Below, piece by piece: positions 20,222 to 20,761 of a stretch of DNA of 64,000 nt (position 1 is its first letter; every line of letters starts with the position of its first letter). The notes below the pieces were generated by a model that saw only the letters and a program-made list of their open reading frames with translations, was not told the origin of the DNA and did not search any database. The position numbers and the translations under genes were made by a program. The stretch is from Escherichia coli (GTDB taxonomy: Bacteria > Pseudomonadota > Gammaproteobacteria > Enterobacterales > Enterobacteriaceae), in assembly GCF_044324875.1 (NCBI RefSeq), contig NZ_CP172185.1; one strand, given 5' to 3'.

Positions 20222-20252
20222 GAGTTCCTGTCTTAAGCCACTTGCCGAAGTC

Positions 20253-20269
20253 AATTGGTCTTACCAATT
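20253..20269. promoter_or_regulatory. Candidate PdhR operator (palindrome AATTGGTcttACCAATT)
   Basis: Perfect 7-3-7 palindrome seen 32 bp upstream of the pdhR start; matches the recalled PdhR box ATTGGTnnnACCAAT. Confidence 0.5.
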
Positions 20270-20673
20270 TCATGTCTGTGACGCTAAAGTAACAAAGTAT
20301 TCACCTTATGTCCATACAGGTTTTGATTGAAATCATGAAACTGTGCACATTTTAACAACTTGACATATATAACGTTTCAAAGTTGTAACTATGCACAAAT
20401 GTAGACTTTACGTAGGAAAGGGATTTTTTAACGATTATTAAACTATAAAAATCCGAATTGAACCGATTCACTTACCAATTTTGTGATTTTTAATTCAAAA
20501 ATAATGAATTCATATTCATTTTGTATGTTGAGGGGATTTGAGGCTGACCTTTACAAACGGTTCCTTTTTAAGCAACTCATCTTCAACCATGCATAAAGCG
20601 GGTGCATTCGCTGCCACATACCATTATTCTTGATCTGACGGAAGTCCTTTTGTAACAATTCAAACTTCTTTGA

Positions 20674-20691
20674 TGTAAACAAATTAATACA
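20674..20691. promoter_or_regulatory. Candidate TyrR box (TGTAAA-N6-AATACA) upstream of aroP
   Basis: Matches TGTAAA-N6-TTTACA consensus at 5 of 6 positions in the right arm; a weaker TGTAAC-containing half-site lies at 20651-20668; aroP is a known TyrR regulon member. Confidence 0.4.
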
Positions 20692-20761
20692 ACAAACGGA
20701 ATTGCAAACTTACACACGCATCACTGCGTAGATCAAAAAAACAATCACCGCACGAGGTTTC

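Follow-up and report, generated by a model that had tools for sequence, protein, structure and literature searches.

The aroP–pdhR divergent control region of an Escherichia coli chromosome is K-12-like in length, site order and operator content

The aroP and pdhR genes are divergently arranged around an AT-rich spacer in the 64-kb stretch of DNA analyzed here (the window), which is E. coli chromosome running in the reverse direction to K-12. K-12 positions are obtained by subtracting the window coordinate from 142313, and a 5-kb stretch of the window is colinear with K-12 119000–124000 at 98.3% identity. Because pdhR lies at 19457–20221 on the minus strand and aroP at 20762–22135 on the plus strand, the spacer between them extends from 20222 to 20761. 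The features along the locus are given below in window coordinates, with a strand wherever one is assigned.

19457–20221, minus strand: pdhR coding sequence (PdhR, 254 aa), from the list of open reading frames; 99.2% identical to K-12 pdhR and named pdhR in K-12 and in the closest genome
20222–20761: aroP–pdhR divergent intergenic control region, AT-rich, 540 bp
20253–20269: PdhR box AATTGGTcttACCAATT, the PdhR operator, spanning +11 to +27 relative to the pdhR start site
20279, minus strand: pdhR transcription start site (an A, 58 nt upstream of the ATG), from a match to the published promoter string
20286–20314, minus strand: pdhR core promoter with −10 TACTTT (reverse complement of 20286–20291), a 17-nt spacer and −35 TGGACA (reverse complement of 20309–20314), placed from the published start site
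20286–20306, minus strand: ArcA box pdhR2, AGGTGAATACTTTGTTACTTT, at −27 to −7, over the −10 element and promoter spacer (Park 2013)
20323–20336: FNR site, TTGATtgaaATCAT / TTGATTGAAATCAT, centered at −50.5 of pdhR, from a pattern search
20344–20391, minus strand: conserved block from the conservation profile, with no published site assigned; candidate phased ArcA half-repeats
20425–20445, minus strand: ArcA box pdhR1, TAGTTTAATAATCGTTAAAAA, at −167 to −146 (Park 2013)
20459–20470: Cra (FruR)-consensus site, TGAACCGATTCA, motif-based
20482–20520: tandem ArgR operator, motif-based, made up of ARG box TGTGATTTTTAATTCAAA (20482–20499), a 3-bp spacer and ARG box AATGAATTCATATTCATT (20503–20520)
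20595–20630: overlapping, conserved core of aroP promoter P1 (plus strand) and divergent promoter P3 (minus strand), AAAGCGGGTGCATTC, with the P3 −10 TGGTAT as the reverse complement of 20618–20623 and a probable P1 −10 TATTCT at 20625–20630
20674–20691: strong TyrR box, TGTAAAcaaattAATACA, with 10/12 consensus matches
20697–20714: weak TyrR box, CGGAATtgcaaaCTTACA / CGGAATTGCAAACTTACA, with 8/12 matches, on the aroP side of the strong box
20754–22135, plus strand: aroP Shine-Dalgarno GAGG (20754–20757) and coding sequence (20762–22135, 457 aa), 97.9% identical to K-12 aroP

The spacer corresponds to K-12 121552–122091 and is colinear with it, with 20 substitutions and no indels, and none of the substitutions falls in the PdhR, FNR, ArcA, Cra or TyrR sites. 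Its GC content is 0.29–0.42, below the 0.50–0.57 of the flanking genes. The original prediction of an AT-rich, 540-bp divergent pdhR/aroP region was exact in coordinates and sequences, and its further statement that the region is intact holds: the spacer has the K-12 length and both the PdhR box and the TyrR boxes are unsubstituted. That prediction named two operator-type sites, and at least seven can now be recognized; most of the additional blocks in the conservation profile coincide with sites already in the literature. Their identity and position, statistical uniqueness and deep conservation are properties of the DNA itself, as is the agreement with published K-12 coordinates in the case of PdhR, FNR, ArcA and the pdhR start site. 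Conservation was followed in an alignment of 79 enterobacterial spacers, from Escherichia to Serratia, in which ACGAGGTTT at the aroP Shine-Dalgarno is conserved. A search of the spacer for structured RNA gave no Rfam family match even at E = 1. In the neighboring pdhR–aceE spacer there is an Rfam match to the sRNA family tp2 (RF02030) at 19300–19412 on the plus strand (94.8 bits, E = 1.4e-17), opposite to the strand of the operon.

The site nearest to pdhR is a palindrome, AATTGGTCTTACCAATT at 20253–20269. It matches AATTGGTNNNACCAATT perfectly, as no other sequence in the 64 kb does, and 100 shuffles produced no such match. Scored against the PdhR box consensus, a 17-bp palindrome AATTGGTnnnACCAATT with the core GGTnnnACC, it matches at 14 of 14 positions. 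Transferred to K-12 the palindrome occupies 122044–122060, with its center at 122052, which is the genome position given for the pdhR PdhR box AATTGGTaagACCAATT (14/14) by Anzai et al. (2020, Table 1). The original prediction had called this palindrome a PdhR box and had staked that reading on curated K-12 coordinates, which turn out to coincide. Across the 79 aligned spacers both 7-bp arms are invariant (79/79) and only the 3-bp center varies; judged from sequence, a repressor that binds as a dimer would leave such a footprint. PdhR binding and its release by pyruvate have been published for the identical K-12 sequence (Olvera 2009; Anzai 2020).

Part of the palindrome recurs within the spacer. 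An 11-nt direct repeat, CTTACCAATTT, is found at 20260–20270 and again at 20471–20481, where it forms a lone PdhR-box half-site between the Cra-consensus site and the ArgR operator. Among the aligned species, E. coli and E. albertii alone have this second copy. The PdhR gSELEX peak at K-12 121966 (Anzai 2020) falls between the two copies.

The pdhR promoter is equally well anchored in the K-12 literature. Olvera (2009) gives the promoter string GTATGGACATAAGGTGAATACTTTGTTACTTTAGCGTCA, with transcription starting at an A located 58 nt before the ATG, and this string is the minus strand of 20279–20317, which places the start site at 20279. A sigma-70 ChIP peak at K-12 122035 converts to window position 20278. 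The −10 hexamer is invariant in the alignment and the −35 hexamer is kept in 77 of 79 species. Relative to the K-12 pdhR promoter described in earlier work (Quail & Guest 1995; Ogasawara 2007; Anzai 2020), the window has the same 17-bp palindrome, the same distances to the start site and ATG, and the same −10 and −35 elements. There is no difference within the promoter–operator, the nearest substitutions (20422 and 20423) being ~143 bp upstream of the start site.

Two sets of sites for oxygen-responsive regulators flank or overlap this promoter. The FNR site matches TTGAT-N4-ATCAA at 9 of 10 positions and is nearly invariant across species. It is identical to the FNR site ATGATTTCAATCAA predicted at K-12 121977, position −50.5, and it lies below the corresponding ChIP-seq peak at 121981–121987 (Myers 2013). 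The ArcA boxes, both made up of direct repeats 11 bp apart, equal base for base the ChIP-verified sites in the supplement of Park (2013), where they are placed at K-12 122007–122027 (pdhR2) and 121868–121888 (pdhR1). With a position weight matrix built from 114 other published boxes, from which pdhR1 was left out when it was scored, the proximal box at 20286–20306 scores 13.8 bits and the distal box at 20425–20445 scores 15.6 bits. The K-12 FNR and ArcA binding maps (Myers 2013; Park 2013) coincide with the window at every base of these three sites. The best ArcA matrix scores in the window (21.5, 19.1 and 17.1 bits) are found upstream of lpdA and acnB, at 14603–14634 and 10812–10851, and these are published ArcA targets (Park 2013).

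Spacing on this side of the region is rigid. In 78 of 79 species the PdhR box and the FNR site are separated by 70 bp; the interval between FNR site and distal ArcA box measures 105 bp, without an indel, in all 79. A class II CRP site has been published at the pdhR −35, and such a site is not recognizable in the spacer sequence. Candidate CRP sites at −41.5 or −70.5 were discarded, since the TGTGC half seen in E. coli is not conserved and nothing convincingly resembles the class II site known from the literature. A possible second pdhR promoter, TTGAAA...TGTTAAAAT at about 20349–20380, was also rejected: its spacer is 20 nt long, a consensus scan gave no promoter-like site there, and published 5′ RACE found a single start.

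One conserved segment between the FNR site and the distal ArcA box, 20344–20391, has no published site of its own. The block carries TGTTAA, TGAAAC and AGTTAC at multiples of 11 bp, gives ArcA matrix matches of 11.5 and 9.3 bits, and lies directly below the published ArcA ChIP-seq peak positions 121923–121950 (Park 2013). A tentative reading, and one that we consider possible but doubtful, is that the block is an unannotated extension of the ArcA operator into a multi-repeat site, or else that it serves a regulator that has yet to be linked to pdhR. If it is true that the operator extends over 20344–20391, this would account for the ArcA peak being 49 bp from the predicted box. This possible extension is the only mildly new idea to come from this region.

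Farther from pdhR are two sites that are assigned from their motifs. The Cra-consensus site TGAACCGATTCA is the sole match in the window to the core TGAANCGNTTCA, with 0.10 expected, and the core TGAAnCGnTTCA is likewise matched at 20459–20470; 72 of the 79 aligned species share this pattern. The published Cra motif is gcTGAAtCGaTTCAgc, and pdhR belongs to the Cra ChIP-exo regulon. The site is found at −185, a location that the published wording on site position does not clearly fit; going by its sequence, 20459–20470 is a candidate for the site behind the published Cra signal at pdhR.

Adjacent to it is a tandem ArgR operator. The canonical form of such operators is two 18-bp ARG boxes 3 bp apart. 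The consensus letters that we take to be those of the ARG box agree with the conserved positions named in the literature, and by these the operator at 20482–20520 matches the core at 19 of 20 positions, more than any other site in the window (the runner-up has 16), with ~0.03 expected in AT-rich random sequence. An alternative, Fur-like reading of the AT-rich palindromes at 20484–20527 is displaced by this much better assignment. ArgR binding upstream of the aroP promoter was detected in K-12 by ChIP-exo (Cho 2015), which fits tandem ARG boxes at this location, and the operator is probably the source of that published signal. In most species the best ARG-like pair is located ~182 bp from the strong TyrR box; its sequence drifts and its position is kept.

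The aroP end of the spacer holds the aroP promoters and their TyrR boxes. In K-12, work by Wang, Yang and Pittard in 1997–1999 reportedly described promoters P1, P2 and P3 with a strong and a weak TyrR box. The two boxes assigned below have the same sequence in K-12, and their placement, downstream of P1 and also upstream of P3, agrees with that description. The window differs from K-12 aroP by substitutions at 20616, just downstream of the P3 −10 element, at 20647 in the P3 −35 area and at 20745 in the leader. The P3 −10 element has been reported as TGGTAT (PMC7142922), and it is present at 20618–20623 on the minus strand. The P1 hexamers are assigned from sequence: TATTCT at 20625–20630, which is kept in 78 of 79 species at 48–50 bp before the strong TyrR box, is likely to be the P1 −10 element. 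A sigma-70 peak at K-12 121650 converts to window position 20663. In the published mechanism, P1 is blocked because TyrR, sitting downstream of it, brings polymerase to the divergent promoter P3 that overlaps it (PMC7142922).

A strong TyrR box is defined by at least 10 of 12 matches together with an invariant G and C 14 bp apart. The sequence at 20674–20691, TGTAAACAAATTAATACA, has 10 of 12 matches to TGTAAA-N6-TTTACA and has the G and C at this distance. It is orthologous to the strong box of Salmonella bongori, TGTAAAtaaatcAATACA, which is contained in primer Bong_promS_tyr_F of published deletion assays (PMC7142922). The original prediction of a TyrR-box-like TGTAAA-N6-AATACA motif at this position is borne out both by the published definition and by the use of the orthologous site in those assays. 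It had also proposed an adjacent weaker half-site, for which it gave no coordinates. The part of this proposal that stands is the existence of a second, conserved box, at 20697–20714. It has the features of a weak box, namely fewer than 10 of 12 matches, a conserved G and C, and a strong box next to it, and it is taken to be the weak box because, by the deletion series in PMC7142922, the weak box is the one nearer to aroP. The TGTAAC at 20651, on the other side, is not the partner: a box at 20651–20668 is not conserved and is without the essential C. Across species, the aroP start codon lies anywhere from 71 to 199 bp away from the TyrR boxes. No relevant literature match was found for the exact aroP TyrR box sequences.

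The same spacer is known as a site of island integration. The aroP–pdhR spacer has been described as the universal integration site of PAIusp, with usp driven by aroP P3 (PMC7142922). The 540-bp spacer was matched in 5423 of 5426 complete E. coli genomes, over at least 80% of its length in 4363, and ~1060 of the 5423 cover it only in part, by the pdhR-proximal 142–190 bp. In the one such case that was inspected, CFT073, coverage is partial because the usp–imu island sits in the spacer. There usp–imu1-3 replaces window positions 20412–20591 (~180 bp), including the Cra-consensus and ArgR sites. An IS3-family element lies beside PAIusp in CFT073, 142 bp from pdhR. The aroP-proximal DNA of CFT073 (locus segment 5443–5969) is 79.6% identical to window 20592–20791, far beyond normal E. 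coli divergence. The PAIusp-bearing B2/UPEC E. coli and S. bongori (PMC7142922) share with the window the chromosomal spacer, the TyrR boxes and the P3 promoter. They differ from it in that the center is replaced by usp–imu1-3, whereas the window has the empty, K-12-like state.

The window does contain an unrelated island elsewhere. A separate segment of ~9.6 kb, 24811–34397, is found at the nadC/ppdD junction near ppdD, ~4 kb from the spacer, and it is absent from the genome that matches the spacer most closely. The segment's annotation in matching genomes comprises two genes of the recombinase family, hypothetical genes, and one for the R subunit of a type III restriction endonuclease or for a DEAD/DEAH helicase. 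Of 5426 complete E. coli genomes, no more than 6 contain 80% or more of the segment, which is presumably the island to which the original prediction alluded.

Three other readings of the spacer have to be set against a standard control region. The TyrR-like motif might be a chance match in AT-rich DNA, with the true aroP operator elsewhere, for example at the TGTAAC of 20651–20668. Motif statistics lend this some color, since the strong-box motif is not found above chance (two sites with two or fewer mismatches in 64 kb, against 2.79 expected) and boxes with 8 of 12 matches occur three to eight times in every spacer examined. The second of the two sites, TGTAATAATATACTTACA at 32490–32507, lies inside the AT-rich island and is consistent with chance. 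It is for position, conservation and the literature on the S. bongori orthologue, and not for the motif match, that 20674–20691 is assigned as the aroP strong box. The G-N14-C signature is kept in 79 of 79 species for the strong box and in 77 of 77 for the weak one, at an offset of 22–23 bp in 78 of 79, whereas the candidate at 20651 has G-N14-C in 6 of 65. In S. bongori, moreover, only the box-containing fragment was bound by TyrR in an electrophoretic mobility shift assay (PMC7142922). A chance match is therefore very unlikely, and the two boxes at 20674–20714 are the preferred reading.

The strain could instead be functionally altered, with ArgR or TyrR control rewired relative to K-12. The substitutions are unevenly spread: 14 of the 20 fall within 50 bp, at 20499–20548, covering ARG box B and its flank within the segment exchanged for PAIusp in B2 strains, and two more (20616 and 20647) are in the P1/P3 core. 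The cluster amounts to 28% divergence in a spacer that is otherwise ~1% divergent from K-12, which suggests an old allelic replacement. In addition, this spacer allele is matched at 99% identity or more by only 631 of 5423 genomes. Against rewired control, both alleles have a canonical tandem ARG operator, with 19 of 20 matches in the window and 18 of 20 in K-12 by hand count; three positions of ARG box B differ and leave the window slightly closer to consensus. From genus to genus the stretch 20499–20548 differs freely but the operator stays in place, and the PdhR, FNR, ArcA, Cra and TyrR sites are unchanged. We regard altered control as improbable on these grounds. Least credible of all is that the spacer holds a remnant or scar of PAIusp or of some other mobile insertion and is not truly intact. 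The status of the spacer as a universal PAIusp site, its partial coverage in so many genomes and the unrelated island 4 kb away are what would bring such a scar to mind, but the spacer, which is free of indels, is exactly as long as in K-12, shares no homology with the CFT073 island segment beyond the common flanks, and has all of its spacings in agreement with those of 78 other species. The spacer can thus be read, with high confidence, as the standard divergent control region of the core genes pdhR–aceEF–lpd and aroP, island-free and K-12-like.

For binding and for regulatory mechanism we rely on the literature, from which the following scheme would apply to the window. RNA polymerase would start at 20279 on the minus strand from TGGACA-17-TACTTT, and a PdhR dimer on the +11 to +27 palindrome would block transcription until pyruvate frees PdhR, giving autoregulation. 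At low oxygen, repression would be exerted by FNR at −50.5 and by ArcA at −27/−7 and −167/−146, with the Cra-consensus site acting, if it does, from further upstream of pdhR. On the other side, TyrR carrying an aromatic amino acid would occupy the strong box and, by cooperative binding, the weak one, both of which lie downstream of the main promoter P1; bound in this way it would recruit polymerase to the overlapping divergent P3, such that P1 is shut off. The tandem ArgR operator would be placed upstream of the aroP promoters. The original prediction that core regulation near the island is conventional appears sound, and calling it conventional is fair because the spacer has the K-12 length and site order and PAIusp is absent.

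What the window holds between aroP and pdhR is the conventional form of a textbook regulatory region, already known as such. The outcome is chiefly a negative one: to judge from the DNA, the core control of pyruvate dehydrogenase and of the uptake of aromatic amino acids appears unaltered beside the island, and the spacer therefore needs no further attention. Two by-products may be of use. One is a coordinate-level map in which seven operator-type sites are tied to published K-12 positions. The other is a 79-species footprint of the region, with very rigid spacing on the pdhR side, where 105 bp are indel-free in every species, and with an ArgR operator that is conserved in position and variable in sequence, within the 180-bp segment that PAIusp replaces in uropathogenic strains.
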